A stretch of 16,182 bases of DNA from a virus (taxonomy: Duplodnaviria; Heunggongvirae; Uroviricota; Caudoviricetes): positions 1-16,182 of IMG/VR virus record IMGVR_UViG_2526164689_000027; one strand, 5' to 3'. A program made the position numbers and the translations under genes. The notes under the pieces were generated by a model. It searched no databases. It was given only the letters and a program-made list of their open reading frames with translations, and was not told where the DNA came from. This document shows, in pieces, positions 400-14,901 of the stretch; within the stretch, counting starts at the first letter, position 1, and each line of letters starts with the position of its first letter.

Positions 400-782
400 C
401 GAATTTCTCCCGTGTACAGGAACAGAGTTAAAAAGCCGGAACCGGAATCAAATTACAGGATGGCCATCTGCCAGTGGCTGGTCGTAAAAAAAGGCCACGC
501 CATGCGCAGCCGGAAATAAAGGGATAACGATGATAGTTTGAGAAAAACAGAAACGACACTTTTGTGGCAAAGCATGGTGCCGGGTGCCTCCCGGTGAGTT
601 CAGCCCGGTGCCACTAAACCCTCGTCATTCTCGTTTTGATAATCAGAGATTATACCGTCACCAGTCGCCCCTCCGCTCAGGGGGATTCACCATGCAGTTT
701 TTTTCTAACAAATTCTCATCCGGGCAGACAACATTCAACTGACTTAATTGTGAGGTATGTAACATTCCTGTTGAACGGATAC

Positions 783-812
783 AAAAAAAGCCAGCCACTG
801 GGGGAGGCTGGC
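783..812 (-). terminator. Rho-independent terminator (minus-strand transcripts)
   Basis: Perfect 7-bp stem GCCAGCC (790-796) / GGCTGGC (806-812) with a 9-nt loop, followed on the minus strand by a run of 7 U (complement of A783-A789). Confidence 0.5.
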
Positions 813-995
813 GAAACTCGTAGAGCAAAAGTGTTGTTACACTAACTTCGTCACAGGGTTATCCTGCAATACTCAAAATACACAATATTTACAAAACTAA
901 TAGTATACAAGGCGATCTTTAAGATTTTGTTATAAATTATTGCCTTTCTCCTCTTTCCATGAGCTTTCTGGATAGCCACAGAATTCCGGGTACAG

Positions 996-1020
996 AAAAA
1001 CCCGCTCAGCGGCGGGTTTT
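996..1020 (-). terminator. Rho-independent terminator, tR'-like, closing the short transcript from the Q-adjacent promoter; symmetric so possibly bidirectional
   Basis: Stem CCCGC (1001-1005) / GCGGG (1012-1016) with a 6-nt loop, flanked by A5 on one side and T4 on the other, so a U-run follows the hairpin on either strand. Confidence 0.5.
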
Positions 1021-1069
1021 GCTACTTTGCCATCACGTACAAAATCGGCAAAATATCAGATTTGCATGA

Positions 1070-1098
1070 AATATATGCCTTTTAATCTACTTTTGCAA
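1070..1098 (-). promoter_or_regulatory. Sigma-70 late promoter, pR'-like, immediately downstream of the Q-like gene
   Basis: On the minus strand: -35 TTGCAA (1098-1093), 17-nt spacer, -10 TATATT (1075-1070). Predicted start near 1062 gives a ~65-nt transcript ending at the 996-1020 terminator, the arrangement used by Q antiterminators in lambda and phage 82. Confidence 0.35.
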
Positions 1099-1102
1099 TA
1101 CT

Positions 1103-1771
1103 TTACTGTGAAAATGCCGCCTTTTGTTTTAAACGTGTTATCGTCACGAACAATAAAGCCTCATTATCCAGCCGGTGAAAAATGTGTTTCATTGCAACCC
1201 AGTGGCCAGTAAATGTTTTGGACCAGTTTTTGGTTGTCACTCCCGCCAGTAATGCCAGCTCCTGGTATTCATAACCTTCCCCACCAAAAAGTTCTGCTTT
1301 TACTGCCTGCGCCGCCAGCCAGATTAATTTTTTCAGGCGTTCCTGCGTTTTCCCTGCAATTTTTCTGGTACCAGATTGAGTATTAAATTCATTCCACGCC
1401 CACTGTGTTATCGCGATCTGATATTCCCAACAAATGCTCTCGCTGTAACACCACAACAACCAGGCTTTATGATGTTCTTCAAGAGACAGAACAGCCCGCC
1501 GCCACGATGATGTCGAAAACTCAACCGGACTGACCAGAGGAATTGATGTCCCCTTCGCCAGCGATTGCTTTCCCGGGATTGGTGGATTATCCCGCGTTAT
1601 CATTTTTCCGGTCACCTCATCTCTGTACCGGATTTTTTTTCTCCTGTAACGCCCTGTATCGAACATGGCATTCTCCTGCCAGGCTTCAAGCTGACCTTTT
1701 GTTGCCTCACTCAAATCAGCGGTGGCGATAATGAGCTGCTCACGCACAAACTGTAAATACTGGTTATTCAT
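1103..1771 (-). CDS. Late-gene antitermination protein Q-like (222 aa)
   Basis: ATG at 1771 overlaps the rusA stop (ATGA) with GGAG SD; the track start at 1777 is a GTG. Position directly after RusA/DUF968 and directly before a promoter-terminator pair is the canonical Q position. Family assignment is from recollection of prophage Q proteins of this size, not from a computed alignment. Confidence 0.5.
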   Translation of the reverse strand: MNNQYLQFVREQLIIATADLSEATKGQLEAWQENAMFDTGRYRRKKIRYRDEVTGKMITRDNPPIPGKQSLAKGTSIPLVSPVEFSTSSWRRAVLSLEEHHKAWLLWCYSESICWEYQIAITQWAWNEFNTQSGTRKIAGKTQERLKKLIWLAAQAVKAELFGGEGYEYQELALLAGVTTKNWSKTFTGHWVAMKHIFHRLDNEALLFVTITRLKQKAAFSQ

Positions 1772-2127
1772 GCGCACTCCAGTTCTGTGATTTTTATCCC
1801 CAGCCGCCCACCAGAAACGAGCTGACCGCGCACAATATTGATTTCATCAAACTGCTCGTCGTCTATGAGAAGTCCGGCATGCGTCAGCGCATCCAGTGGT
1901 GCTTTCAGGATATTGTCCAGGTCACGACGGCGCTTATCCGGTGGCTCTGCAATAATTTTTATTGCCAGCCGTCCGGACAGGCTTAATTTCAGTCGCTGCT
2001 GGCGAACAATTAGTGCCACATCACGGCGATAACGCTCACCGACTTTTGATACAAAATATGTGTTGCCACGACGTCGCCAGTAAGTATTCACCGTCGGCGG
2101 GTAAGGTAAAACCAAATCTATGAGCAT
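1768..2127 (-). CDS. rusA: Crossover junction endodeoxyribonuclease RusA (Holliday junction resolvase)
   Basis: 119 aa with ATG at 2127 and GAGGTG SD. Contains LPYPPTVNTYWRRRG and PDKRRRDLDNILKAPLDALTHAGLLIDDEQ, matching the conserved RusA core including the catalytic DRRRRDLDN-type block. Confidence 0.85.
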   Translation of the reverse strand: MLIDLVLPYPPTVNTYWRRRGNTYFVSKVGERYRRDVALIVRQQRLKLSLSGRLAIKIIAEPPDKRRRDLDNILKAPLDALTHAGLLIDDEQFDEINIVRGQLVSGGRLGIKITELECA

Positions 2128-2139
2128 CAGTCACCTCTT

Positions 2140-3189
2140 TTACCCGAGCACGCCAGTCGCAAAGGCGTGATCAAGAAAACGAAAAATTAACTCAATCTGA
2201 GAGCCGTACTTTTTCTCAAACTTCAGCGGGTCTGCATGAAGTTCGTTGTGGTGCTCCCGGCACAACGGTAGCGTGAAAATATCGTGGGCCTTTGTTCCCA
2301 CTCCCCCCTGACCATGACCAATCAGGTGATGCGGATCGTCAGCTGGCTTACCACAACACGCACACGGCTGTGTCTTTACCCAGCGCGTGTATTTCTCATT
2401 AACCCAACGGCGACGTTTAGGCCGCCTCATGAACGATTCAGGAGACTCCGGATCAACGGCGATACTGACAACCGTTTTTTTCTGTGGTGGATTTTGTTGC
2501 TGGTGGACGTGAAGTGGCAGCGCAATATTTTTTGTGCGCTGCTTCAGTATGCTGATGGCTGTCTGTTCTCCCGGTACGATGTCACTCTCACGGTATACGG
2601 AGCGGATTTTTTCCGCTGGTAATCCCAGCGAACGACGCGCTACTGCCTCAGGTAGTGCATCCACCACCTGATTGCAGGCCGCCCACCAGGATAATTCGGC
2701 CAGCGATAACTCCCTCTCCTGCGTACCGCTTATTGCGTGACGGATGACATCAATCATCCAGGCAACCAGATTCTGCTGAGCAAGTTGATCGAGTGATTCT
2801 GATGTCTGGTCGCGCAGCTGGTTGTCACAGTGCCAGCACAACACCATCGCGCCGGTACCATAACGGTGAATGACTGTTTCGCTGTGATGATAATCGCCGT
2901 GTGGCCACTGGCAGGATTTCACGTGACGTAATAACCAGTCAGACAGTGCACCTGCACCACCTGCTGCACGAATAACCCGCTCATCGCTGAAAAATGGCAG
3001 TAATGTTTTATCCTCTGCCAGCGGCTGGCGAACGGCAGGAACGACTCCGGACGGCAGACCACGCATGTTTTTCGGTTCCGGCTCCACCAATATTCTGCCG
3101 TTATGGAATACTGACATTGATTCACGGCCTGGCTTAACGATAACCAGACCGAGTTCCGGTACCAGAACAGGTCGAAGTAATACCCGCAC
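2140..3189 (-). CDS. ydfU: DUF968-family prophage protein (YdfU-like) with C-terminal HNH-like motif
   Basis: 349 aa from a GTG start at 3189 with GGAGGT SD, 1 nt after the upstream stop. Synteny with rusA and the Q-like gene matches Qin ydfU. C-terminus CACCGKPADDPHHLIGHGQGGVGTKAHDIFTLPLCREHHNELH resembles an HNH/zinc-finger nuclease motif. Confidence 0.65.
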   Translation of the reverse strand: MRVLLRPVLVPELGLVIVKPGRESMSVFHNGRILVEPEPKNMRGLPSGVVPAVRQPLAEDKTLLPFFSDERVIRAAGGAGALSDWLLRHVKSCQWPHGDYHHSETVIHRYGTGAMVLCWHCDNQLRDQTSESLDQLAQQNLVAWMIDVIRHAISGTQERELSLAELSWWAACNQVVDALPEAVARRSLGLPAEKIRSVYRESDIVPGEQTAISILKQRTKNIALPLHVHQQQNPPQKKTVVSIAVDPESPESFMRRPKRRRWVNEKYTRWVKTQPCACCGKPADDPHHLIGHGQGGVGTKAHDIFTLPLCREHHNELHADPLKFEKKYGSQIELIFRFLDHAFATGVLG

Positions 3190-3190
3190 G

Positions 3191-3460
3191 TTACCTCCAG
3201 ATGCGCTGCAGGAATGTGCGGGACGGACGCGGTGGGCGTTCGGAATAAGGGAGCCTGACGGAGATTATCCAGTGACGACGATCGAAGCTGAGGGCTTTCT
3301 CAAACTCATATCCGCGCCTGCGGTAACACTGGATCAGCCATTCGGCCTGTTCTTCAGTGCATAGGGGATGCTGGAACCAGTCGGTTTTAAATACGTGCGA
3401 ACACCGCCCTTGCCTACTGGCAAGGGCGGCAGAATTGTGCAATCTGCTATCGTGCGCCAT
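3191..3460 (-). CDS. Hypothetical nin-region protein (89 aa)
   Basis: ATG at 3460 with GGAG SD about 9 nt upstream; the stop abuts the DUF968 start. No recognisable motif. Confidence 0.4.
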   Translation of the reverse strand: MAHDSRLHNSAALASRQGRCSHVFKTDWFQHPLCTEEQAEWLIQCYRRRGYEFEKALSFDRRHWIISVRLPYSERPPRPSRTFLQRIWR

Positions 3461-3513
3461 CGGGATCTCCGGTGGCACGGTGTTTCTCAGCGACGGTTCA
3501 AGTCAGCCTGATT

Positions 3514-3741
3514 TTATAGCTGCTTCTGAATATCATCAACAGGTAATCCTGCCAACTCTCTTACCTCAGAAAGAAGAGAAAGGCTTACAACAACCTCATT
3601 ACTTCGCATAACAAAACCACATTGAAAAGAACCATCACTGTTTCTGTAAACAACAACCGGGCGCGTGCTCTCATAAAACCCCGGGATCAAACTGGCTGGG
3701 ATTTTCACAACACCTCCTGACGTAAAGGAAATGAAATGCAT
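3514..3741 (-). CDS. Hypothetical small protein (75 aa; alternative start at 3786)
   Basis: Open frame on the operon strand; ATG at 3741 has only a weak purine-rich SD. No recognisable motif. Confidence 0.3.
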   Translation of the reverse strand: MHFISFTSGGVVKIPASLIPGFYESTRPVVVYRNSDGSFQCGFVMRSNEVVVSLSLLSEVRELAGLPVDDIQKQL

Positions 3742-3929
3742 TATCGCTTCTCTCGGACTATAACCATGAAAAGAGACGCATTTCACTCAGTAAATCTGAG
3801 GATTTTATGCGCAAGAACAATGACTTTTTCTGTCTGCCGTTTATACAATCTGAATTACGTCTATTTTTTGAACACCGATAAATCAGCAAGCATTCTCAAA
3901 TAAAGATTGCCTCCATAGTCCACATGGTG

Positions 3930-3944
3930 TAACACTATGTGTTA
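3930..3944 (+). promoter_or_regulatory. Palindromic putative operator in the promoter of the toxin-antitoxin pair
   Basis: TAACAC-TAT-GTGTTA perfect inverted repeat, overlapping an AT-rich -10-like TATATAAAAT about 20 nt upstream of the toxin ATG (3965). Type II TA operons are usually autoregulated through such palindromes. Confidence 0.3.
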
Positions 3945-3964
3945 TATAAAATGCAGAGGCAGGT

Positions 3965-4336
3965 ATGCGAATTTTCAAAAACGCCTGGTTTGAACGTTTC
4001 GCCCGAAAACATCGGATTTCCGATAAATCGCTGCGCAAAATCGTGGAGCAGGCCGATAAGGGGATCATATCCGCAAATTTGGGTAGTGGTGTCATTAAAC
4101 AAAGATTAGCCCGAAGTGGTGGCGGAAAATCAGGCGGTTACCGGACAATAATTTTTTACCGCGTTGCAGAAAAAGCCTTTTTCATCTACGCATACGCAAA
4201 GAATGAACGAGAGAATATCACTGCTATAGAGGAAAATGCTTTTCGAAAAGCCGCTCCCCATGTCCTCAATCTTACTGATGAACAGCTGGCACAATTGATT
4301 CAACAAGGCCAGTTCACGGAGGTACCCAATGAGTAA
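3965..4336 (+). CDS. RelE/ParE-superfamily toxin, HigB-2 / Gp49-like (123 aa)
   Basis: Block GSGVIKQRLARSGGGKSGGYRTIIFYRVAEKAFFIYAYAKNERENITAIEENAFRK parallels the V. cholerae HigB-2 core (GTGGLRKIRV...GKRGGSRIIYYF...YLLTIYGKNE). Its stop overlaps the start of the next gene by 8 nt, with toxin first as in HigBA-type operons. Confidence 0.7.
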   Translation: MRIFKNAWFERFARKHRISDKSLRKIVEQADKGIISANLGSGVIKQRLARSGGGKSGGYRTIIFYRVAEKAFFIYAYAKNERENITAIEENAFRKAAPHVLNLTDEQLAQLIQQGQFTEVPNE

Positions 4337-4646
4337 AAATTACCGCAGTGATGCACTTGCATCTGTACATGAAATGATGGAGTCACTCCATGATATCGGT
4401 GCAATCACAAAACAAACTATGCGCGAATTCGATGAAACTTGTCTTCAGCCTGCGCCGGTAATGTCTCCGGAAAGGATCCGTGCACTGCGAGAACGAGAGC
4501 ATCTGTCTCAACCTGTTTTTGCCAGATACCTCAACGTCAGTAAAAACCTGATATCAGACTGGGAACGAGGAGTGAAACGCCCGGGAGGTGCAGCTCTTCG
4601 GCTTCTTTCAGTTGTCGAGAAAAACGGGATCCAGGTAATATCCTGA
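4329..4646 (+). CDS. HTH (XRE-type) antitoxin, HigA-2-like (105 aa)
   Basis: Translationally coupled to the toxin. C-terminal region RIRALREREHLSQPVFARYLNVSKNLISDWERGVKRPGGAALRLL is a typical XRE helix-turn-helix. Confidence 0.7.
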   Translation: MSKNYRSDALASVHEMMESLHDIGAITKQTMREFDETCLQPAPVMSPERIRALREREHLSQPVFARYLNVSKNLISDWERGVKRPGGAALRLLSVVEKNGIQVIS

Positions 4647-4748
4647 TATTCTAATACAACAAAACCCGCCGAAGCAGGTTAAGTGCGGGTGCGTTGAGGA
4701 TGCCTGACACATCAGAGGTGGCGAGGGATTTCTCCCTCGCCAGGTCTC

Positions 4749-4904
4749 TTACTCCTCAGGTTCGTAAGCTGTGAAGACAGCGACCTCCGTCTGGCCGGTT
4801 CGGATTCGTACCTCGCAGAGGTCTTTCCTCGTTACCAGTGCCGTCACTATGACGGTTAAACAGATGACAATCAGGGCGATTAACATCGCCTTTTGCTGCT
4901 TCAT
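4749..4904 (-). CDS. hokD: Hok/Gef-family type I membrane toxin (HokD/RelF-like, 51 aa)
   Basis: MKQQKAMLIALIVICLTVIVTALVTRKDLCEVRIRTGQTEVAVFTAYEPEE matches the Hok/Gef family across its full length (transmembrane helix then conserved CEVR..GQTEVAVFTAYE). ATG at 4904; the track ORF extends in frame to an upstream ATG at 4961. Confidence 0.85.
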   Translation of the reverse strand: MKQQKAMLIALIVICLTVIVTALVTRKDLCEVRIRTGQTEVAVFTAYEPEE

Positions 4905-5175
4905 AGCCTGCTTCTCCTTGCCTTTCGGCACGTAAGAGGCTAACCTACATGTGCAAAGCATGAAATTGGCCTCAGATTAATGTTAAGCGTCCTGCAAGAC
5001 GCGTAATGTTAACTGGGGCTTTTCTCTGTCTGCCTTACGGCGGCATGCCCGAGGCAGACAGCCTCAAGCACCCGCAGCAATTCTACTTAACTCTTCTTTC
5101 CCCGCAAATCATTTTATCCCCGATGGTAATGTTCTCCCGATATGGGAATTCCCATATCAAGGTTAACTCAATCGG

Positions 5176-5727
5176 TTAAAGCTCCATTAATTTTCCGGCC
5201 AGTTCATCTCGTGGCATTACCAGCCATCCGCGCGATTTAAGCAAAGCCAGGGCTTCTTCAACCGTCACCAGCTGGCCAGGCGCATAACTTCGGATGAAGG
5301 CGGTTTTATCGTCACGGATCGCCAGGTGAAAATCGATATTCATTTTTCCCATAGCCCGCTCTTTCTCGTACTGGTTGAAGTAACTGTCTTCGAGTTTTTC
5401 GAATACTTCCCACGCCTGATCGGTTTCGAGCATTTTTGCATGACGGGCTGCTCCGCGTTCTGTCCAGAGGATGAGAGTGCGGGTTTTGGGAGAAATTTTC
5501 ACCTCATTTTGCGACTCGTTTAAAACTAGTCGCAAATTTTTGAGCTCATCACCAACAGCTTTAAAGAAGTGTTTTCCCTCAATAAATCGAGATTTATTTT
5601 CATGGTGATTCTGCTGTATACGGATTGCTTCTGTTCCGTAAAGGCGGGCGAGTAACTCAGTTGTGATTACAGGAATCTGGTTATAAGTGACAGGGGAAAG
5701 GTTTTTGACAGTAACTTGAGTCGTCAT
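5176..5727 (-). CDS. ORF6N-domain protein (phage antirepressor-like, 183 aa)
   Basis: ATG at 5727 with GAGGG SD. N-terminus ITTELLARLYGTEAIRIQQNHHENKSRFIEGKHFFKAVGDEL fits the ORF6N/KilA-N-like consensus (from recollection). Confidence 0.5.
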   Translation of the reverse strand: MTTQVTVKNLSPVTYNQIPVITTELLARLYGTEAIRIQQNHHENKSRFIEGKHFFKAVGDELKNLRLVLNESQNEVKISPKTRTLILWTERGAARHAKMLETDQAWEVFEKLEDSYFNQYEKERAMGKMNIDFHLAIRDDKTAFIRSYAPGQLVTVEEALALLKSRGWLVMPRDELAGKLMEL

Positions 5728-5891
5728 GATAACGCCCTCTGGTTGATGAATTTAACTATCACCACCTTCAGGTCTCAATCATCAGGTGGCGAGACGTACA
5801 GGGTTGAGACTACCGGATCAACCAACCGGCCAGCCTTTCGGCTGCCCCATACGCCTCACCATAATTCAGATGTGCGTGCGCATACGACAAT

Positions 5892-5913
5892 AAAAAACAC
5901 GCTCGCGGCGTGT
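5892..5913 (-). terminator. Rho-independent terminator in the nin-type region (tR2-like position)
   Basis: On the minus strand: stem ACACGC / GCGTGT with 5-nt loop CGCGA, followed by 6 U (complement of A5892-A5897). Confidence 0.45.
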
Positions 5914-5998
5914 GTCTGTCGCGGTTGAATATCCGGGGTCTCAATCCCGACGGTCAACTCGACCGTGCGGTGAATATAGCCCCGGATTAGTAATTACG

Positions 5999-6082
5999 TC
6001 AACCCCAGCGGCAAATCGAATAAACCACCAGCGCTACCGCCATTGCAACTCCTGCCGTTACGAATGCCTCAGGCCAGGTCAT
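5999..6082 (-). CDS. Possible 27-aa hydrophobic peptide (MTWPEAFVTAGVAMAVALVVYSICRWG)
   Basis: ATG overlaps the stop of the upstream small gene (ATGA, 6082-6079). The peptide is one predicted transmembrane helix. Below the size cutoff of the ORF track; no dedicated SD. Confidence 0.2.
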   Translation of the reverse strand: MTWPEAFVTAGVAMAVALVVYSICRWG

Positions 6083-6264
6083 CGTAAACTATCCTCAGCG
6101 CCAATCAGTCCGTTTCGCTTCAGGCAGTCCATCGCTTTATACGGTAATTTGGCTGACAGGCGAAAATCACCCTGCAGCATCAGGCTTATTCCCTTATCCC
6201 GGGCTTTCGCTCTGACCGCTGCCTCGCTACGACCAATCAGACTGCCGATACTTTCGACAGTCAT
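6079..6264 (-). CDS. Small putative DNA-binding protein (61 aa, NinH-like position)
   Basis: ATG at 6264; start is uncertain because the track ORF begins upstream at a non-ATG codon. MTVESIGSLIGRSEAAVRAKARDKGISL looks like a helix-turn-helix. Confidence 0.35.
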   Translation of the reverse strand: MTVESIGSLIGRSEAAVRAKARDKGISLMLQGDFRLSAKLPYKAMDCLKRNGLIGAEDSLR

Positions 6265-6323
6265 CGTTCCCGCGCACTGCCGGAGTATCAGAATTTCAGC
6301 CCGGCACCACGTCTTCCACCCAC

Positions 6324-7085
6324 TCACCGCTGCTGTTCTCTGGTGGCGGTAATATCCCGGAGAATATCCCGGCACTTGTTCAGCTCCCGCAGCGCGGCGC
6401 AGACTCGCTCCCACTTCTGAACCTGACCTTTTGCCCGGCGCAGCTCGCGGTTAGCCACATGCAGCGATGGTAAAATCAGCCCATCCGGATGCTTTCTGGT
6501 GAACGACGGCTGTGACTGCACTGTGACCGCCACACTTTCCGTTTTTATTTCTTCCTGTGTTTCCGCTTCCCGGACTGGTAACGCAACACATGCTGGCTGA
6601 GGAAAGGCTTTACCATCGGTTTCCGCTACGGATGCAGCTTCCGGCTCTGCCGGTAAATCAGCGCCCGGTATGCAGTAACGAAATTTACCGTTCTGATTTA
6701 CGCGTGCCAGGCGCCCCGTTGCTGTTACGACCGCCAACGTGGAAGCAACCTTGCGAATGCTAACACCGAACTTATCCGCCAGTTCCTCACACGTTTTAGC
6801 CCCATCCTGACAGATAAACTCAATCATCATGTCCGCGGTAACTTTTTGTTCGACCTCCCCGGTCAGCACATCCGGTACTTCAGACTGTGCTGGCTGTTCT
6901 TCGGTTACCCCGGATTCACCTTCGACAGCCAGAAACCAGGTGTGACCCGTTTTATCAACAACGCCATTTTTTTTGAGTTCCCACAGTTCGTTGAGAACTT
7001 CTTCACGGCTGATATCAAGCCGCGCCGCCAGTTCAACAGAATTGGCTTTACCCATCGCTTTCAGTGCATGCAATACGGTTCCCAT
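6324..7085 (-). CDS. Tandem winged-helix protein (254 aa), function unknown
   Basis: ATG at 7085 with GGAGG SD 9 nt upstream. Two repeated wHTH-like segments, [44 protein letters not shown] and [43 protein letters not shown], plus a charged C-terminal helix. Confidence 0.5.
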
Positions 7086-7119
7086 TAAAATTTCCTCCGG
7101 ATAAAAATTACTTCTCAAA

Positions 7120-7785
7120 TCAGACAAAACCAGCCGCTTTCCGGCGTTCATACTCCTGTTTCAGCAACTCAATTGGCGTTGGTCCCAACGGGCGTTTTGG
7201 TGCCGCCAGTTGTCGCCGTACTGGCGGAACGCTCAGGCCGTTACTAACATGCTTTGCCCATTTCGTCAGCTGCCGTTCTGCAAGCCGTTTTAATTCCCCT
7301 TCGGTCATCTGGCGTTCAATCCCCTTTGAACGCATCTCGAGGCAAATGTGATACAGCACAGGCTGAGGCCACGGATATTTGTCGCTTCCGTTATATCGCC
7401 AGGACTCATTACGCCAGCGGCGATACTCCTCCATCACAGCATCCACCGTCAGGCCAAATGGATTGGCCCCGCTTTCCGAAATCAGCGCCACAAACTCAGC
7501 CAGGTCCGGAGGCCATGTTTCACCCGCCCGGCAGCGGTCCATGCACTGGCGGCAGACCTGCCGGATTTGCTGCTCAGTCATCGCGCCAATCTGTGCAATC
7601 CAGAGCTTCGAAGGTGCGGCCCCGTTCTTCTGGGTCCAGCGGTTCGAATAAACCTCCCCCATGAGTTCCCACAGCTTCCAGGCCGTTTCCGTCGCTGATA
7701 AATCCGTTTTCACGTTCCCACTGCTCACGTGCTGCCCGAATTTCCTGAACTGCCCGTGATGCGGTGCCACCTGGTGCTGCTGCAT
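7120..7785 (-). CDS. Replication protein P-like (lambda P family helicase loader, 221 aa)
   Basis: ATG at 7785 with AGGGGG SD, 4 nt after the O-like stop. Recalled blockwise similarity to lambda P: [13 protein letters not shown] vs [28 protein letters not shown] vs [33 protein letters not shown] vs TDAELRRKAADEL. Confidence 0.6.
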
Positions 7786-7788
7786 GGT

Positions 7789-8613
7789 TTACCCCCTTGC
7801 TGACTGGTTAACCTGCGCCCTGACGTGATTTACGTGACGGGCGAATTTCTGCTCCCACTGAATCTGCGTAAACACTTTCCCCTCCGCTGCCCAGTAGTCC
7901 CGGAATGCGGTAAGTTCAGCAGGTGTAAATTCTGTCTCCGGCAAAGCCATCCCCCACAACGCAGCCCGTCGTCGAAAATCCCGTGACGGATACCAGCTAT
8001 CGGTCATCGGAAATTTTCCGATGGGTTCGCTCAGGCCATCCAGGAATACATGGGGGGCTGCCTGTAACGACAAAACTTCCTGCTCACTGATCGGAGCACT
8101 CTCGCGTGCGTTATGTGTGGGGTTTAGATCTTTGGGTTCCTTTGGGTTCCGTGATCCGTTTTTGGGTGTCTTTGATGGAAAATTTGGGTGTCTTTGGTTA
8201 TTTTCCATGCAACAAAGAGTTCCGTTTTTGGGGCTCTTTTGTGCTGAAACATAACCGTTTTCGGTACTGTTTTTATTAACAGCACCAATTTTACCCACCT
8301 TTAAAGACACCCGTTTTTGGGTGTATTCAGGCTCGGCAACACTTTCTTCTACACCGATAAGTCGGTACACCACAATTTGCTTTGTTCTGCCTTTTCTCTC
8401 ACCGGTATCAACAATTAACCCAATCTCCATCAGGTGTCGTAAGCTGTCCTGCACAGTCTTTTTGTTCAGTTCCGTTACTTCTGCCAGTGCAGATACAGAC
8501 GGGTATGCACACAAATCGGCACCGCACATATCAGCAAGCCAGGTCAATACAGACTTACTGGATGAACTGCCGGTTTTCACCTTTTTAGCCCATCGTAGTG
8601 CATCGATACTCAT
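7789..8613 (-). CDS. Replication initiator, lambda O-like (274 aa), with ori iterons embedded in the coding sequence
   Basis: ATG at 8613 with AGGGG SD; the track's longer start at 8688 would overlap the upstream gene by about 100 nt. N-terminal wHTH (MSIDALRWAKK...LRHLMEIGLIVD), a repeat-encoded linker (KSPKNGT...SKTPKNGSRNPKEPK), and a C-terminal domain, directly upstream of the P-like gene. Confidence 0.6.
   Translation of the reverse strand: MSIDALRWAKKVKTGSSSSKSVLTWLADMCGADLCAYPSVSALAEVTELNKKTVQDSLRHLMEIGLIVDTGERKGRTKQIVVYRLIGVEESVAEPEYTQKRVSLKVGKIGAVNKNSTENGYVSAQKSPKNGTLCCMENNQRHPNFPSKTPKNGSRNPKEPKDLNPTHNARESAPISEQEVLSLQAAPHVFLDGLSEPIGKFPMTDSWYPSRDFRRRAALWGMALPETEFTPAELTAFRDYWAAEGKVFTQIQWEQKFARHVNHVRAQVNQSARG
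8131..8324. repeat. Iteron cluster, putative prophage origin of replication
   Basis: TTTGGGTTCC twice in tandem (8131-8150); TTTGGGTGTCTTTG at 8161-8174 and 8184-8197; degenerate copies at 8225-8240 and 8311-8324; an inverted copy AAAGACACCC at 8303-8312; AT-rich stretch 8253-8300. Lies in the linker region of the O-like gene, as the lambda ori does. Confidence 0.5.
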
Positions 8614-9136
8614 ACGAACCCCTGGCAGATATTTGTTTATCTGCAAAGTAATATTGATACTGCTGACGATACGCATGCTTGAAAGCAATAGCTTTTTCTA
8701 TAAGCTCGTCAGTCTCACGTTCCACAACAGATGGATCCGCAAAAAGCAGTCCGGACTCCACCACATCGCCATATTCTTTGTTTAACCCGGCGATCATGTA
8801 CGTGATGCTTTTTCCGTCACTAATTTCACGATACAACCTGAAATCATTAATCCGGATAGCCTCCATAATTGCAGGCACTAGCGCCGTGAACTTTTCACGC
8901 TTATCCCTGGTGTCGATAGCCTTCCAGCGTTCGAATATCTTCACTCGATTAACGCCAAGCGCTCGCTGATCAACCGCGCCACCTTCATCTGTGACACGCT
9001 GAACATCGATGTTCGGGCGCTCTTTCAAAACCCAGAATGCTTCAGTGATTAATATCGTCGCCTGCTCCTGTGTCATTCCTGGTCGACATATCCAGGCATC
9101 CAGAGCCTCACGAGCCTGTTCAGGAGTGATTTTCAT
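8585..9136 (-). CDS. Protein in the cII position (183 aa), possibly YdaT-like
   Basis: ATG at 9136 overlaps the end of the cro-like gene by 17 nt. Sits between cro-like and O-like genes. Family assignment is by position only and is weak. Confidence 0.4.
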   Translation of the reverse strand: MKITPEQAREALDAWICRPGMTQEQATILITEAFWVLKERPNIDVQRVTDEGGAVDQRALGVNRVKIFERWKAIDTRDKREKFTALVPAIMEAIRINDFRLYREISDGKSITYMIAGLNKEYGDVVESGLLFADPSVVERETDELIEKAIAFKHAYRQQYQYYFADKQISARGSYEYRCTTMG

Positions 9137-9347
9137 TGTTCAACCGCCCCGCCCGCTTCGTCTTACGATATTCGTCATAAACCTTGGGATCATACAGAAG
9201 CTCGCCGCCAGATGCCTCCTGTAGACGCATCGCGCGACCTTCAGGAACTAGCTCTTGCCATTGAGAAACAGCAGATGGGTCAACGCCAGCAGCTTTCGCT
9301 ACTTTGGCTTTCGTACCGTAAAAATTAATTACGTCTGATTTAAACAT
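9120..9347 (-). CDS. dicC: Cro-like HTH regulator (DicC / YdaS family, 75 aa)
   Basis: ATG at 9347 with GGAGGT SD; the track start at 9374 is upstream of the SD. Divergent from the repressor gene. AKVAKAAGVDPSAVSQWQ is a Cro/CI-type HTH, and the C-terminus RAMRLQEASGGELLYDPKVYDEY is typical of this family. Confidence 0.65.
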   Translation of the reverse strand: MFKSDVINFYGTKAKVAKAAGVDPSAVSQWQELVPEGRAMRLQEASGGELLYDPKVYDEYRKTKRAGRLNNENHS

Positions 9348-9354
9348 CGCACCT

Positions 9355-9424
9355 CCAATATTGAGTTTTCTCAATACTAATCACTCAAGGAATCTCAAGT
9401 CAAGGGTTATTAAGATATCTAAAT
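9355..9424. promoter_or_regulatory. Divergent immunity promoter/operator region (oR-like)
   Basis: 14-bp palindrome TTGAGTTTTCTCAA at 9361-9374. On the minus strand, -35 TTGACT (9403-9398) and a -10-like TAGTAT follow with the palindrome over the start site. The repressor gene starts at 9425 with no strong SD. Confidence 0.45.
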
Positions 9425-9832
9425 ATGAACGAGAAAACTTTAGGTCAACGCATTAGAGAAAGACGTAAGCAGGTAGGCTTAAGTCAAAACGGTTTAAGCA
9501 AAGCTGCTGGCGTATCTGGCTCATCAATTTCATTATGGGAAAGTGACCATACAGCCCCGCGCGGGCAAAATTTGCATCGCCTCGCCGAGGTATTGCAATG
9601 TTCACCAACCTGGATACTGTTTGGCGACGAGGACAAAACACCAGCTCCCCCTGTTTCACTCGATAGTACCCTAGACTTATCGGAAGATGAGTTAGAGATG
9701 CTGCGTTTGTATCGCGCACTTCCTAAATCAGAGCAACAAGCACAACTCAGCGAACTCCGCGCCCGCGTTGAGAATTTTAATCGCCTGTTCACCGAGCTAT
9801 TAGAGGCTCGCAAACGCAACAAGCATCAATAA
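9425..9832 (+). CDS. dicA: DicA-like prophage repressor (XRE HTH, 135 aa)
   Basis: N-terminal HTH QRIRERRKQVGLSQNGLSKAAGVSGSSISLWESDH, then LQCSPTWILFGDEDK and C-terminus ELRARVENFNRLFTELLEARKRN, closely matching my recollection of E. coli DicA, which is also 135 aa. Confidence 0.8.
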   Translation: MNEKTLGQRIRERRKQVGLSQNGLSKAAGVSGSSISLWESDHTAPRGQNLHRLAEVLQCSPTWILFGDEDKTPAPPVSLDSTLDLSEDELEMLRLYRALPKSEQQAQLSELRARVENFNRLFTELLEARKRNKHQ

Positions 9833-9890
9833 TCATCCCTTCACAAAATTTTAAAGCCTTACATTTCAATGTATTGGCTTTATCTTGCGC

Positions 9891-9948
9891 CAATACTTGA
9901 GTTTTCTCATCAAAAAACCTTGACGAAAAATAATGAGAAAACTAAATT
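9891..9948 (+). promoter_or_regulatory. oL/pL-like operator-promoter for the leftward early operon
   Basis: CAATACTTGAGTTTTCTCA (9891-9909) repeats the oR motif CAATATTGAGTTTTCTCA (9356-9373) with one extra base; an inverted copy ATGAGAAAACTA is at 9932-9943. -35 TTGACG (9920-9925), 17-nt spacer, -10 TAAATT (9943-9948), with operator copies covering the spacer. Confidence 0.4.
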
Positions 9949-10024
9949 ATCTCCATCAACACACCGCACGGTGTTCTCCGCAAACAGTTCCGCTACCCCG
10001 GCGTTAAGGGGAAATGAGGTCAGC

Positions 10025-10177
10025 ATGGATACTATCGATCTTGGCAACAACGAATCTCTGGTATGTGGCGTGTTTCCCAATCAGGACGGCACGTTTACCG
10101 CGATGACGTATACCAGAAGCAAAACGTTTAAAACGGAAGCTGGCGCGCGTCGCTGGTTAGCAAGAAACTCTGACTGA
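10025..10177 (+). CDS. ydfA: YdfA-like small protein (50 aa), first gene of the dicB-type operon
   Basis: ATG at 10025 with GAGG SD 7 nt upstream; the longer track ORF from 9869 has no SD and crosses the promoter. Size and position after dicA match Qin ydfA. Confidence 0.5.
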   Translation: MDTIDLGNNESLVCGVFPNQDGTFTAMTYTRSKTFKTEAGARRWLARNSD

Positions 10178-10827
10178 TGAGGTTGACGATGGAATTTAAA
10201 GATTTACCTCCTTCAATCCAGGAGATTGCAGCACACACACTTCGTCATCGTCTGAACGAACTTGAATTGGAATCGGTAACGAAAAAAGACACTGATAATA
10301 TGGCTCGTAATGTGCGCGATGCGTTTACCGGATTGTATTTCTGTGCGTCTATAAATAAACACGACTCAGAGAGTGTGGCAAATAAAATTGCAGAAACGAC
10401 AGCGCAAAACATCAATACGAAACCAACGGAAGAAGAAATTGATCAGTTTGCTCATGATGCTGGTTTAAAAAACAAGAAAGAAAAATCGCCATATGCGGGG
10501 AACATGTTTGTTTATGACAATCTCATCAGAATTCGTGGCGAAATTCCGGCGGAATACCTGGCAAGAGTCCATCAGGCATTGCTTAAAAATTTGGAAACAG
10601 AATTATTTGATGGCAACACTAACGGTTTCTTCATGGTATCAGGCCTTGAGAAAGACTGGGATGCAGAAAAACGCTGGAATGTTGCTACATGGTTATTCAG
10701 TAACAGAGCCGCTGCACTGGAAGCTTCGGCATGTATTTGCGGCCTGTTCTTAACAGACCACAAATATAATCTGGATGTGTACAGTTATATTTACGCTGAA
10801 CACGGTCCACTCTGGATTGACTGGTAA
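10177..10827 (+). CDS. Hypothetical 216-aa protein, no recognisable domain (alternative start 10189)
   Basis: ATG at 10177 overlaps the upstream stop (TGATG); the internal ATG at 10189 has a GAGG SD. Soluble, acidic, no transmembrane segment or nucleotide-binding motif seen. Occupies the slot where I recall Qin carrying only the small ydfB/ydfC genes. Confidence 0.5.
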   Translation: MRLTMEFKDLPPSIQEIAAHTLRHRLNELELESVTKKDTDNMARNVRDAFTGLYFCASINKHDSESVANKIAETTAQNINTKPTEEEIDQFAHDAGLKNKKEKSPYAGNMFVYDNLIRIRGEIPAEYLARVHQALLKNLETELFDGNTNGFFMVSGLEKDWDAEKRWNVATWLFSNRAAALEASACICGLFLTDHKYNLDVYSYIYAEHGPLWIDW

Positions 10828-11037
10828 TTATAAGGAAACACCAGCAGGGCCGCGGCGACCAACAGAACGATTAAAATCAATAATGCCATTATAAAGGACA
10901 TTATTTAATTTATCGTCGAATGCTGATTCTGTGAGCCTCAACTCTGAATGAGTTTTTAATAACCCTGATTGCCTGAGTTGATTTACCAGGCATTCAATCT
11001 GTTTTTCAATAAGCGGATTTCTTTTTTTGTTTGGCAT
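10828..11037 (-). CDS. Hypothetical 69-aa protein, convergent with and abutting the 216-aa gene
   Basis: ATG at 11037 with GGAGGA SD 5 nt upstream. Its stop codon (10830-10828) directly abuts the stop of the plus-strand gene (10825-10827). Opposite orientation to the surrounding operon. Confidence 0.35.
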   Translation of the reverse strand: MPNKKRNPLIEKQIECLVNQLRQSGLLKTHSELRLTESAFDDKLNNVLYNGIIDFNRSVGRRGPAGVSL

Positions 11038-11376
11038 TTTATCCTCCATTGAGGTTCTGGGTTAAAAATGGAGACCAACACGCTGTCACGTGTGGTCGTG
11101 CGCCGGACACGGATAAGAATCCGGTACTGACAGTTTACTGAAAGGATATTTCCCTGAAAAGTCAGTGCATAACGCGAAAGCGTACGGCGAAGCTCTTTCC
11201 CTTAGAAGGCTTGTCGTTAGATTTCTTCGAACGTGCGCTTCCGGTTGTGGCACTCCGCGAAATGGCGCGGCGGTAAGTATGGCGGGGTTATTCCTTCCCC
11301 AGTTGAGGACACCGGGTTGTCAGGTTGACCATACGCTTAAGTGACAACCCCGCTACAACGCCCTCTGTTATCAATA

Positions 11377-11434
11377 TTCTGGTGACATTTGGCGGTATCA
11401 GTTTTACTCCGTGACTGCTCTGCCGCCCTTTTTT
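11377..11434 (+). ncRNA. dicF: DicF small regulatory RNA (Hfq-dependent sRNA targeting ftsZ and other mRNAs)
   Basis: TTCTGGTGACATTTGGCGGTATCAGTTTTACTCCGTGACTGCTCTGCCGCCCTTTTTT matches my recollection of E. coli DicF almost base for base, including the terminator hairpin GGCGG (11391-11395) / CCGCC (11423-11427) and U-tract. Lies just upstream of dicB as in Qin. The 5' end is approximate (RNase-processed in K-12). Confidence 0.7.
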
Positions 11435-11604
11435 AAAAGTGAATTTTGTGATGCGGTGAATGCGGCTCAGCGCACGCGGAACAGTTAAAACCAAAAACAG
11501 TGTTATGGGTGGATTCTCTGTATCCGGCGTTAATTGTTAACTGGTTAACGTCACCTGGAGGCACCAGGCACCGCATCACAAAATTCATTGTTGAGGACGC
11601 GATA

Positions 11605-11793
11605 ATGGAAAAGTTATCATGTAATGCCAGCACGTCTGAACTTCGTTTCGAAATTGGCGTTATCACTGGAGACAAAACATTTATTGAAGACGCCATTAAG
11701 CAGAGAAAACTCGAGCAGGACCTGTTAAATGAAGTATGCATTCCTTCAATGCTGGCTCGTCTGGACCTGCTGCAAAAAGGATATAAACAATGA
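11605..11793 (+). CDS. dicB: Cell-division inhibitor DicB (62 aa)
   Basis: ATG at 11605 with GAGGA SD; the track ORF from 11500 would run through DicF. MEKLSCNASTSELRFEIGVITGDKTFIEDAIKQRKLEQDLLNEVCIPSMLARLDLLQKGYKQ aligns with recalled DicB (FEIGV, EDAI, SMLARL blocks) at the same 62-aa length. Confidence 0.8.
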   Translation: MEKLSCNASTSELRFEIGVITGDKTFIEDAIKQRKLEQDLLNEVCIPSMLARLDLLQKGYKQ

Positions 11794-11981
11794 ATACAAC
11801 ATTTGCACTCGTTCTGACAGTTTATCTTGTTTCCGGCGAATCTCTTGAGCTGGTGACTGGCTTATACGGTTCAATGAAAGAATGCATGGCTGCAGCAGCA
11901 GAACAAAAAATTCCCGGTAACTGTTATCCGGTAGATAAAACTACTCACACTAATAATAACGAAATACCGGCAGGACTTTAA
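11790..11981 (+). CDS. ydfD: YdfD-like small lysis/membrane protein (63 aa)
   Basis: ATG overlaps the dicB stop (ATGA). Hydrophobic N-terminus MNTTFALVLTVYLVSG, 63 aa, immediately after dicB as in Qin. Confidence 0.65.
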   Translation: MNTTFALVLTVYLVSGESLELVTGLYGSMKECMAAAAEQKIPGNCYPVDKTTHTNNNEIPAGL

Positions 11982-12074
11982 AACAGCACCGTAATTAATA
12001 TCCGGTTTCATTTTTATATGCCAGCAATGGCAGGGATTTGTTCACCCTTAAATCTGTAATGAGGTTAAAACAAA

Positions 12075-14546
12075 ATGAGTAAAGTCTTTATTTGCGCCGC
12101 CATTCCGGACGAACAGGCAATAAAAGAAGAGGGCGCAGTTGCTGTAGCCACTGCCATTGAAGCCGGTGATGAACGCCGCGCCCGTGCCAAATTTACCTGG
12201 CAATTCCTGGAGCAATATCCTGCTGCTCAGGACTGCGCTTATAAATTTCTTGTCTGCGAAGATAAACCTGGCATGCCCCGCCCTGCTATCGACTCCTGGG
12301 ATACCGAATATATGCAGGAAAACCGCTGGGATGAGGAATCCGCTTCCTTTATTCCGGTCGAACCAGAATCCGATCCTATTAACGTCAATTTTGACAAGCT
12401 GTCCCTTGAAGTACAGAACGCGGTCCTGGTTAAGTTCGGTACATGTGAAAACATCACCGTTGATATGGCGATTGACGCGCAGGAATTACTGCAAGAAGAC
12501 GTGGCTACCTTTGACGGACATATCGTTGAAGCACTGATGAAAACGCCTGAAATTAACGCTATGTATCCGGAACGCAAACTGTTCGCTATCGGATGGGTTA
12601 AACACAAATGTAAGCCGGGTACCAAATGGCCCGAAATTCAGGCTGAATTACGTAACTGGAAAAAACGGCAGGACGCAGAGCGCAAAGAGACTGGAAAATA
12701 CACGTCTGTTGTTGATCTTGCCCGCGCCAAAGCCAACCGACAGCACACTGAAAACCCAGCAGAAAAAATCCCTCCTGTAACTGCCGCCATTCATCGCGAA
12801 TACAAGCAGACATGGAAAACCCTGGACAGGGAGCTGGCCTACTATCTCTGGCCTGGTGATGCGGATGCCGGAAACATTGACGGCAGCATCCTTCGCTGGG
12901 CTAAAAATGAAGTTATCGCCAGAGATCGCGAAGACTGGAAGCGCATCTCCGCATCAATGCGCAAACAACCTGATGCGCTTCGCTACAGCCGCCAGACTAT
13001 TTTTGGCCTTGTCCGTGAACGTCCGATCGACATTCACAAAGACCCTGTGGCACTGAACAAATACATTACTGAATACCTGACTACAAAGGGCGTGTTTGAA
13101 GATGAAGGAAGAAATCAGAGCGCAACTGATACTCTCTCGTCGCCAGTACCAGAAACTGATGCAGTGGAAACGGCAATTCAGGACAACGAAAAAACCGAAT
13201 GCAAAGTGGAAGTCGAATCATCTGTAGAGCGTGAGGGGCCGTTCTACTTCCTCTTCAGCGACAAGGATGGCGAAAAATACGGTCGTGCAAACAAACTTTC
13301 TGGTCTGAATAAGGCGCTGGCTGCAGGGGCTACTGAAATCACGAAAGAAGAATATTTTGCCCGCAAAAACGGTACATACTCAGGTTCACAACAAAATACT
13401 GGTGCATCTGACACGATCGCACAACCGGAGCCGGTAAAAGTTACCGCTGACGAAGTAAACAAAATTATGCAGGCAGCCAATATCAGCCAGCCTGACGCCG
13501 ATAAGTTGCTTGCTGTATCACGTGGTGAATTTGTTGCAGGGATTAGCGACCCGAATGATCCGAAATGGGTGAAGGAGATTGAAACCCGCGATTCAGTGAA
13601 TCAGAACCAGCAAGAAACGGAACAGAACGACCAGAAAGCGGAACAAAACAGCCCAAATGCGTTACAAAACGAGCCAGAAACGAAACAATCCGAACCAGTA
13701 GTGCAACAGGAACCGGAAAAAGTCTGCACCGCCTGCGGTCAGAGCGGTGGCGGCAACTGCCCCGATTGTGGCGCTGTCATGGGCAACGCAACATACCAGG
13801 AAACATTCGATGAAGAGAATCAGGTTGAAGCTCAGGAGAATGATCCGGAGGAAATGGAAGGCGCTGAACATCCACACAAGGAGAACACTGGCGGCAATCA
13901 GCATCACGCCAGCGATAGTGAAACTGGCGAGGCGGCAGATCCCTTAATTAAGGTGAATGGTCATCACAATCTCACATCCACCAGCAGAGCGGGGATTCAT
14001 CTGATGATCGACATTGAAACCATGGGAAAAAATCCCAATGCCGCGATTATCTCAATAGGCGCAATATTTTTCGATCCACAAACCGGAGATATGGGACCGG
14101 AATTTAGCAAGACCATCGATCTGGATACTGCTGGCGGAGTTATTGATCGTGACGTCATTAAATGGTGGCTGAAGCAATCACGTGAAGCGCAGTCTGCCAT
14201 TCTGACCGATGAAATCCCGTTAGATGATGCACTACTGCAATTGCGGGAATTTATCGCCGAAAACTCCGGTGAATTTTTTGTTCAGGTCTGGGGAAATGGA
14301 GCCAACTTCGACAACGTGATTTTACGCCGTTCATACGAACGGCAGGGGATCCCCTGCCCCTGGCACTACCACAACGATCGCGATGTACGCACAATCGTTG
14401 AGCTAGGGAAAGCCATAGACTTCGATGCCAGAACAGCTATCCCATTCGAAGGTGAGCGCCACAATGCACTTGATGACGCCCGTTACCAGGCAAAATACGT
14501 TTCAGCTATCTGGCAAAAACTGATCCCGAGTCAGGCTGATTTTTAA
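12075..14546 (+). CDS. Large prophage exonuclease (823 aa): unassigned N-terminal region, Cys4 zinc ribbon, C-terminal DEDDh 3'-5' exonuclease domain
   Basis: ATG at 12075 with GAGG SD. C-terminal motifs MIDIETMG (Exo I), WGNGANFDNVIL (Exo II) and HNALDDARYQ (Exo III) define a DnaQ-like DEDDh exonuclease. CTACGQSGGGNCPDCG (about 13721-13775) is a CxxC...CxxC zinc ribbon. Position corresponds to Qin ydfE, which I recall as a 306-aa IS-truncated remnant in K-12. Confidence 0.75.
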   Translation: MSKVFICAAIPDEQAIKEEGAVAVATAIEAGDERRARAKFTWQFLEQYPAAQDCAYKFLVCEDKPGMPRPAIDSWDTEYMQENRWDEESASFIPVEPESDPINVNFDKLSLEVQNAVLVKFGTCENITVDMAIDAQELLQEDVATFDGHIVEALMKTPEINAMYPERKLFAIGWVKHKCKPGTKWPEIQAELRNWKKRQDAERKETGKYTSVVDLARAKANRQHTENPAEKIPPVTAAIHREYKQTWKTLDRELAYYLWPGDADAGNIDGSILRWAKNEVIARDREDWKRISASMRKQPDALRYSRQTIFGLVRERPIDIHKDPVALNKYITEYLTTKGVFEDEGRNQSATDTLSSPVPETDAVETAIQDNEKTECKVEVESSVEREGPFYFLFSDKDGEKYGRANKLSGLNKALAAGATEITKEEYFARKNGTYSGSQQNTGASDTIAQPEPVKVTADEVNKIMQAANISQPDADKLLAVSRGEFVAGISDPNDPKWVKEIETRDSVNQNQQETEQNDQKAEQNSPNALQNEPETKQSEPVVQQEPEKVCTACGQSGGGNCPDCGAVMGNATYQETFDEENQVEAQENDPEEMEGAEHPHKENTGGNQHHASDSETGEAADPLIKVNGHHNLTSTSRAGIHLMIDIETMGKNPNAAIISIGAIFFDPQTGDMGPEFSKTIDLDTAGGVIDRDVIKWWLKQSREAQSAILTDEIPLDDALLQLREFIAENSGEFFVQVWGNGANFDNVILRRSYERQGIPCPWHYHNDRDVRTIVELGKAIDFDARTAIPFEGERHNALDDARYQAKYVSAIWQKLIPSQADF

Positions 14547-14615
14547 TGTTCAACCATCGCCGGTTGTGACTGGTATTCTGCAACCGGCCCTCATCTGATG
14601 TAAGAGATAAAAGCG

Positions 14616-14867
14616 ATGAGCGAAGTAATCATGATTGTCTCTCCCGGTAAATGGGTATCCGAAGAGCAGTTAATTGCGCTGAAAGGAATAAAAAAAGGTA
14701 CGTTAAAAAAGGCCCGGGAAAAATCGTTTATGGAAGGAAGGGAATATAAGCATGTCGCTCATGACGGTATGCCATGGGATAACAGTCCATGCTTTTACAA
14801 CCTGGAAGAAATTGATCGCTGGATTGAGCGCCAGGCATCTGCAAGACCAAGACGTCATCTTGCTTGA
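14616..14867 (+). CDS. Excisionase-like protein (83 aa)
   Basis: Small basic protein directly upstream of the integrase; WVSEEQLIALKGIKKGTLKKAREKSFMEGREYKH is consistent with a winged-helix Xis fold. Start is uncertain (14616 or 14631). Confidence 0.5.
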   Translation: MSEVIMIVSPGKWVSEEQLIALKGIKKGTLKKAREKSFMEGREYKHVAHDGMPWDNSPCFYNLEEIDRWIERQASARPRRHLA

Positions 14868-14901
14868 CTAAAAGCAACACGAACCAATGAGAGAAGCTGA
14901 A

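Follow-up and report, generated by a model that had tools for sequence, protein, structure and literature searches.

A probable lambda-type replication origin inside the initiator gene of a lambdoid Escherichia coli prophage

The stretch of DNA analysed here, hereafter the window, comprises 16,182 nt (positions 1 to 16,182 of record IMGVR_UViG_2526164689_000027) and carries the early region of a lambdoid E. coli prophage. On its minus strand lies an O-like replication initiator gene, present as a 274-aa allele and followed by a lambda-P-like helicase-loader gene, and within the initiator gene a dense cluster of repeats occupies positions 8119-8329 (Table 1). The original prediction for this locus was an iteron-type origin embedded in the initiator gene, with repeated units in the part coding for a linker. 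The repeated units were readily recovered, with TTTGGGTGTCTTTG occurring twice as exact copies (8161-8174 and 8183-8196) and TTTGGGTTCC twice in tandem (8131-8150), and the full unit proved longer than first noted. Their placement in the linker-coding part is borne out, as the repeats code for residues 96-165 of the initiator, within a segment modelled as disordered, and so is the claim that they give rise to a PKNG-type peptide, the translation containing TQKR, STENG, SPKNG and TPKNG besides NPKEPK.

Read on the coding (minus) strand, the repeat unit is CAAAGACACCCAAAAACGG, extended by GTGT in the best copy. Five copies of 18-23 bp, whose coordinates were placed by hand from the window sequence, form a graded series of one perfect 6+6 dyad, two partial dyads, one weak copy and one half-site, and each iteron site has a central A5 tract that should bend the DNA. 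With up to three mismatches, CCGTTTTTGGGTGTCTTTG is found at 8156, 8222 and 8311 as against an expectation of 0.01, and none of 200 shuffled sequences reaches three matches. Likewise, three of the four matches to GACACCCAAAAACGG in the window (0.54 expected) and two exact matches to GGAACCCAAAG fall inside the cluster. The centre-to-centre distances between the iterons are about 22, 44, 32.5 and 56 bp. Helical phasing was considered and set aside, as some of these distances come close to multiples of 10.5-11 bp but 56-57 bp does not, and relatives use 17, 39 and 61 bp. Two GATC (Dam) sites are present in the core of the region, one at 8126-8131 (within AGATCT) and one at 8153-8156 in the right arm of iteron 5, and AAAGATCT is found again at the matching position in several relatives (loci L089-L096, Vibrio phage Her and L135).

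A set of 61 related loci, drawn from prophages and phages of gamma-, beta-, alpha- and delta-proteobacteria, was compared with this arrangement. Six sources were used, namely the window prophage, Edwardsiella phage EPP-1, phiV10, Vibrio phage Her, Acinetobacter phage LZ35 and Burkholderia phage Bcep176, and a scan of one genome per species with a four-sequence alignment supplied 58 further loci, which span Enterobacterales, Acinetobacter, Vibrio, sphingomonads, Burkholderiales, Methylobacterium, Desulfovibrionaceae and others. Nearly all of the loci have, right after the part coding for the winged helix, the lineage's own dyad repeats of one design (GATCCCAAAAACGGGAT, GTCCCAACGTTGGGAC, GTACCAATATTGGTAC, GTCCCAAATTTGGGAC, GTGCCAAAAGTGGCAC, CCCGAACnnnGTTCGGG and CCGGCAnnnnnTGCCGG), and a loose core pattern is 117-fold enriched in the 440-nt region after the winged helix relative to the rest of the 58 loci. 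Variants that combine a half-site with TTTTCC, like iteron 4 of the window, are also present in relatives. The iterons accompany the N-terminal domain of the initiator whatever C-terminal domain is present. In the recognition helix, the residue that follows KT(V/I/L) tends to track the iteron arm, with Gln found with ACACCC/ATCCC, Leu, Ile or Met with GTCCC, Phe with GTACC and Trp with GTTCC. Some of these residue and arm switches occur within a clade, and the pattern is suggestive only of this residue as a possible determinant of iteron specificity. In Vibrio phage Her (L005, 1859-1978), the iteron unit CCGAAAACGGTACTTTGAATAGGC is present in tandem as five 24-bp copies that are nearly perfect, and these look like a recent expansion of the array by slippage.

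A second repeat class follows the iterons. In 51 of the 61 loci, two bases after the last and best iteron, there are two to three tandem units of 10-13 bp starting with GGAAYC, which are 52-fold enriched. The passage from iteron to GGAAYC unit in relatives reads, for example, GGGAC AC GGAATCTATCAAAGAATCTATCAATAGAATCTAAAAATAAAAAA, and the window has the corresponding layout ...ACACCCAAAAACGGATC AC GGAACCCAAA GGAACCCAAA GATCTAAACCCC, then AGATCTAAACCCC. The TTTGGGTTCC units, which the original prediction counted among the iteron units, align position for position with GGAATCTACCAAGGAACCATAAAGATCTAAACCCC of the nearest relatives and, judged from this alignment, appear to be the window's version of the conserved (GGAAYC N5-8) tandem found after the last iteron. 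They are also similar to an iteron half-site (AAAGGAACCC vs AAAGACACCC), and both the second-class and the half-site readings are possible. Such units are conserved in Enterobacteria, Acinetobacter, sphingomonads, Burkholderiales and Desulfovibrionaceae. In the family consensus A+T climbs to 62-71% over the 40 nt past the last iteron, and the order along the gene of iterons, GGAAYC units and A-rich tract parallels that of lambda, where iterons are followed by an AT-rich tract. In relatives from sphingomonads, Zoogloeaceae and Edwardsiella (L104, L112, L115, L121, L123, L144 and L003/L094) a C6-7 run and a short hairpin, e.g. CCCCCCTTATCAGCTAAAGCTGATAAGGCCCCC, are seen after the GGAAYC units, about 40-80 nt past the last iteron, and the window has only CCCC at 8119-8122.

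Table 1. Positions of the repeats, genes and other features discussed in the text
Feature	Position	Strand	Basis or remarks
Initiator (O-like) gene, 274-aa allele	7789-8613	-	Open reading frame (ORF) and translation
Winged-helix DNA-binding domain coding region, presumed iteron reader	8329-8613	-	Family alignment, pLDDT 80-93, PHROG matches
Iteron 1 (It1)	8303-8329	-	TGAATACACCCAAAAACGGGTGTCTTT; core ACACCC-AAAAAC-GGGTGT at 8307-8324, a perfect 6+6 dyad; in frame T-Q-K-R
Iteron 2 (It2), weak	8252-8273	-	AAAACAGTACCGAAAACGGTTA; GTACCGAAAACGGTTA; read T-E-N-G; differs among E. coli alleles
Iteron 3 (It3)	8218-8240	-	AAAAGAGCCCCAAAAACGGAACT; read P-K-N-G
Iteron 4 (It4), half-site then TTTTCC	8175-8196	-	CAAAGACACCCAAATTTTCCAT; 22 bp from iteron 5
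Iteron 5 (It5), last iteron	8152-8174	-	CAAAGACACCCAAAAACGGATCA; read P-K-N-G
Moderately AT-rich stretch	8197-8306	.	Between iterons 1 and 4; includes iterons 2 and 3, both weak
Second repeat class, 10-bp unit GGAACCCAAA twice in tandem	8130-8150	-	TRF and family comparison
3' edge of probable origin module and mosaic junction	8119-8129	-	ATCTAAACCCC; with 8130-8131 makes AGATCT
One-base deletion, AAA to AA on coding strand, about 7807	7806-7810	-	Relative to all closest genomes
Lambda-P-like helicase-loader gene, 221-aa ORF	7120-7785	-	PF06992 4e-16; phrog_109 'P-like helicase loader' 1e-62
ydaT/cII-position gene	8585-9136	-	
cro-like gene	9120-9374	-	
pR-like sigma-70 promoter match TTGACT-18-TAGTAT	9374-9403	-	Upstream of cro-like gene; consensus match only
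cI-like repressor	9425-9832	+	
Integrase	14887-16182		Right end of window

The protein encoded by the 274-aa allele consists of a winged helix (residues 1-89), a disordered linker (90-195) and a DnaT-like single-stranded DNA (ssDNA)-binding domain (196-272). In an AlphaFold model built with 26 homologues the winged helix is confidently predicted (pLDDT 80-93), as is the C-terminal domain, and the linker is disordered with pLDDT below 50. The protein matches phrog_1032 'replication initiation protein' (E 3.5e-88) and, over residues 201-271, the Pfam family DnaT (PF17948, E 7e-17), and its N-terminal match to HTH_36 is weak. Foldseek superposes the C-terminal domain on DnaT structures 6aeq and 4ou6 with 54-57% identity and a TM score of 0.9. 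This domain is the sole part in common with the host primosomal protein DnaT; in the initiator an origin-specific winged helix is joined to it, and the initiator scores 92 bits against the NCBIfam DnaT cut-off of 201. The winged-helix domain itself is 39-72% identical across phages of six genera, with an invariant DTGE(R/K)xGxT wing and KT(V/I/L) recognition helix. Searches of PDB sequences did not find any solved relative of the N-terminal domain, and by fold it has generic winged-helix matches only. The PHROG profiles 678 and 345 ('replication initiation O-like') are matched by both the initiator N-terminus and the lambda O N-terminus.

Variation within E. coli was followed in 47 distinct haplotypes of the initiator gene, taken from near-identical prophages in a scan of viral contigs. 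Common polymorphisms are missing from the segment 8117-8196 (It4, It5, the GGAAYC units and AGATCTAAACCCC), in which 8.7% of sites are variable, compared with 9.5% for the folded winged helix, 14-36% for the internal spacers and 41% for the next 100 nt of the linker. It2 and the right arm of It1 differ in the commonest alleles.

The closest known counterpart of this arrangement is ori-lambda, which lies in gene O, together with the origins of the Stx phages 933W and P27 with four or six iterons. Like these, the window has several dyad sites of 18-19 bp with a central A-tract in the inter-domain part of the initiator gene. The 18-bp dyad core of iteron 1 and the lambda sequence ATCCCTCAAAACGAGGGA, which represents annotated O-binding iterons inside O, are of one design. 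As in lambda, the initiator gene would be transcribed from pR and is followed by a P-type helicase-loader gene (PMC7466680), the promoter in the window being a consensus match, and the N-terminal domain with the origin and the C-terminal domain with P make up two exchangeable modules. The repeats are almost certainly the initiator-binding sites of a lambda-type origin, and we consider it likely that this lambdoid prophage starts its replication at 8119-8329, within the initiator gene, from an origin built like ori-lambda. The 61 loci and the comparison with lambda strongly support the predicted iteron origin beside a P-like gene, though its initiator falls outside the lambda O family as defined by Pfam. 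A literature search that covered iterons with DnaT, Stx replication regions, epsilon15/phiV10, oriJ/ydaU and the iteron sequences, with many older papers outside it, yielded no description of this origin. The lambda-type origin would belong to a different and widespread initiator family for which no published origin description was found.

By analogy with lambda, we infer the following course of initiation. Leftward transcription from the pR-like promoter, which from its position would cross the cro-like gene, the ydaT-like gene, the initiator gene with its origin, and P, would yield the initiator. Its winged-helix domain, probably as dimers, would bind the dyad iterons, the strongest sites being the core of iteron 1, iteron 3 and iteron 5, with iteron 4 as a half-site copy, and the DNA would bend at the central A-tracts. 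The resulting complex would destabilise the adjoining segment with the tandem GGAACCCAAA units, such that the GGAAYC region melts, and the DnaT-like ssDNA-binding domain together with the P-like protein could then deliver host DnaB. The steps of initiation have been described for lambda, where in vitro the two iterons nearest the AT-rich tract suffice (PMC7466680), and this sufficiency is a parallel to the invariance of It4 and It5 in E. coli.

Iteron plasmid origins such as those of RK2, F, R6K and pPS10 likewise have repeated sites for a winged-helix initiator beside an unwinding element that contains repeats. They differ in that the window origin lies inside the initiator coding sequence, its sites are dyads and not simple direct repeats, and the helicase is presumably loaded through the P-like protein. 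A search for DnaA boxes (TTWTNCACA) gave no matches in the whole window.

Several observations weigh against the interpretation of this region as a lambda-type origin or set it apart from lambda. The initiator does not match Phage_rep_O (Pfam PF04492) at E values up to 0.01, and its C-terminal domain is DnaT-like, unlike that of lambda O. Direct homology between the two N-termini was rejected, as hhalign gives an insignificant probability of 4% and the link is only transitive, via the two shared PHROG profiles. The iterons of the window are five, uneven and 22-56 bp apart, whereas those of lambda are four and close-packed, and iteron 2 is both weak and polymorphic. In place of the 40-bp AT-rich tract of lambda, the window has the tandem GGAAYC units; downstream of iteron 5 it is A+C-rich with about 50% GC, and no strongly AT-rich unwinding tract adjoins the last iteron. 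The low polymorphism of 8117-8196 could partly reflect a recombination boundary rather than constraint. None of the literature searched gives experimental evidence on a member of this initiator family. Lastly, a one-base deletion at about 7807 shifts the frame of the initiator to a stop at 7789-7791, shortening it from about 346 to 274 residues with the loss of its conserved C-terminal ~72 residues.

We also considered the repeats as a by-product of a low-complexity PKNG peptide linker that was expanded by slippage and has no function as DNA. For this explanation, the strict-core copies are all in frame in phiV10, L133 and L131, and five of six are in frame in Vibrio phage Her; the spacings in these four are multiples of three, and the perfect 24-bp tandem copies of Her look like slippage. 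Elsewhere, however, the spacings include 17, 22, 26, 39 and 61 bp, which are not multiples of three, and copies in more than one reading frame are seen in 17 of the 20 loci that have at least three strict copies. In the window one DNA motif is read once as TQKR and three times as PKNG or TENG, and EPP-1 similarly reads one motif both as TQKR and as PKNG. The occurrence of the same DNA motif in several frames rules out a purely peptide-level repeat, and the repeat is therefore selected as DNA. Moreover, the units have a dyad symmetry that is meaningless for a peptide, Pro, Lys and Asn are invariably encoded by CCC, AAA and AAC, also in Acinetobacter and Vibrio with their AT-rich DNA, and the GGAAYC units code for different peptides by lineage (ESIR, NQSY and QNLP). 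We regard an origin in the peptide alone as very improbable. Repeats selected as DNA could still be sites at which the winged-helix protein acts in autoregulation, copy control or incompatibility, with unwinding and the start of replication elsewhere, for example in an AT-rich intergenic region. Iterons in plasmids also serve copy control, and less stable DNA is present elsewhere in the window, e.g. at about 8629 and at 9326-9407. The latter, however, is taken up by the operator and promoter; the array, the GGAAYC units and the A-rich tract are kept as one block at one position in the same 51 of 61 loci whatever the neighbouring genes; and in lambda an equal layout is the origin itself (PMC7466680). 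Purely regulatory sites are very unlikely as well, if slightly less so than a peptide by-product.

A different concern is whether the probable origin is still served by its own initiator in this copy, which the original prediction had supposed might remain capable of replication. In Escherichia, Salmonella, Klebsiella, Enterobacter and Yokenella the homologues have 328-352 residues and a tail of about 70 residues with the motif ASRAVQxI...GG..EP.D.E, which is missing from the 274-aa protein. This exact protein is found once among ~15 billion sequences, in E. coli DEC8D, and the deletion is therefore either a strain-specific mutation or a homopolymer sequencing error. As the initiator lacks its conserved C-terminal 72 residues and the allele is in only one assembly, autonomous replication of the window copy is doubtful, and the truncation means that the origin in this copy may fire only when an intact initiator of matching specificity is given. 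It is nearly an even question whether the origin sequence, though intact, is a relic here, the tail-less initiator being unable to start replication alone and the origin responding at most to the intact initiator of a co-resident prophage with the same specificity; the balance falls slightly to the other side. Besides the deletion, the shared tail motif and the rarity of the protein, such a relic is favoured by the presence of up to six related places per E. coli genome and by reports that related ompW prophages excise on induction and are defective in late functions (PMC8112680). On the other hand, the deletion is in a homopolymer run of an apparently older draft assembly and may stem from a sequencing error, nothing is missing from the DnaT-like domain, and phiV10, EPP-1 and P0018 have naturally short forms whose tail differs. 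A short O with a long P was also considered as an intact arrangement, which was suggested by the alignment of the 221-aa P with phiV10 P from residue 18; it is countered by the conserved tail of the long initiator in homologues of 56-62% identity.

The AT-rich stretch of the original prediction is present but differently placed. GC is 0.33-0.43 over 8160-8300, and the stretch lies within the array, upstream as the gene is read, not after the repeats. Its least stable 60-nt window, starting at 8247, has z = 1.8 (about two standard deviations, 96th percentile) and is outside the eight least stable places of the window. This modestly unstable stretch was rejected as the unwinding element, the family position for such an element being downstream of the GGAAYC units. 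A tentative proposal, for which we see less than an even chance by a clear margin, is that the tandem GGAAYC units are themselves a sequence-specific unwinding or single-strand-loading element, with either the winged-helix initiator or a conserved host factor recognising it. The origin would then be bipartite, with the residue after KT(V/I/L) setting iteron-arm specificity, and DnaA boxes with DnaA-trios, or the 13-mers of plasmid and chromosomal origins, would be the analogue of such double-strand sites beside a repeated melting element. As a candidate unwinding element, the conserved units are the most interesting point of the locus.

The neighbourhood of the initiator gene is that of a lambdoid early region. 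From right to left, the window has genes for the integrase, excisionase, an 823-aa exonuclease, the cI-like, cro-like and ydaT/cII-position proteins, the initiator, the P-like protein, DUF1627, a RelE/HTH pair, hok, DUF968, RusA and the antiterminator Q. Positions 7100-9200 are 99.6-100% identical to many STEC (Shiga toxin-producing E. coli) chromosomes and 95.5% identical to 'PPompW' prophages, and the 2.1-kb replication region (P, initiator, ydaT- and cro-like genes) has matches in roughly half of the complete E. coli genomes that were searched. With ydaU/ydaV of the Rac-SA53 prophage, the C-terminal half of the initiator and the P-like gene share about 92% identity, and this homology begins at window position 8133, the 3' edge of the repeat block (the match covers 7102-8133 only). 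The N-terminal domain of Rac-SA53 YdaU is unrelated and these repeats are missing there, and we read the junction, from the sequence match, as the classical lambdoid two-module pattern. An active origin of Rac, oriJ, has been reported (PMC3945230).

An 8,461-bp circular E. coli plasmid record (NZ_CP148379.1, L147) has the cI-cro-ydaT-O-P block as its sole large block in common with the prophage, about 93% identical to window positions 6926-9987, besides a short match of ~450 bp in the hok region (window 4658-5109). Its cargo comprises hokD, rem, an HNH endonuclease and an ATP-binding protein, with no other annotated replication gene. If real, the record may be a natural lambda-dv-like replicon that supports the sufficiency of the module; it could also be an assembly artefact.

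These results would show where replication starts in a prophage replication module that is very common in E. coli/STEC, and they suggest that a widespread family of phage initiators carries the origin inside its own gene, as lambda does, even though its members are annotated only as 'DnaT-like ssDNA-binding' or 'primosomal' proteins. Origins in prophages and phages of this kind can then be located by a simple rule, and the natural variants of iterons and initiators lend themselves to studies of specificity. Replication after induction, and hence the dosage of neighbouring genes at this locus, appears to depend on whether the one-base deletion is real.

A few further features of the neighbouring genes were noted. 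In the 274-aa allele the start codon of the P-like gene is 4 nt past the initiator stop, and the RefSeq annotation of relatives starts P at Met69, giving 153 residues. Positions 7581-7785 are claimed by two frames, viz., the conserved C-terminal tail of the long initiator in relatives and the 221-aa P-like ORF, which is labelled 'replication protein' in many records and shows a weak alignment with phiV10 P over its residues 18-68. PHROG 15931 has the look of a fused O-P profile. A RelE-family toxin gene with an adjacent HTH gene (3965-4646) and a hok-family toxin gene (4749-4961) are situated between the replication genes and that of the antiterminator Q. The 823-aa ORF at 12075-14546, an 'exonuclease' in relatives, has no Pfam match in its first 640 residues, and an Rv2179c-like 3'-5' exoribonuclease domain is present only at residues 642-813.

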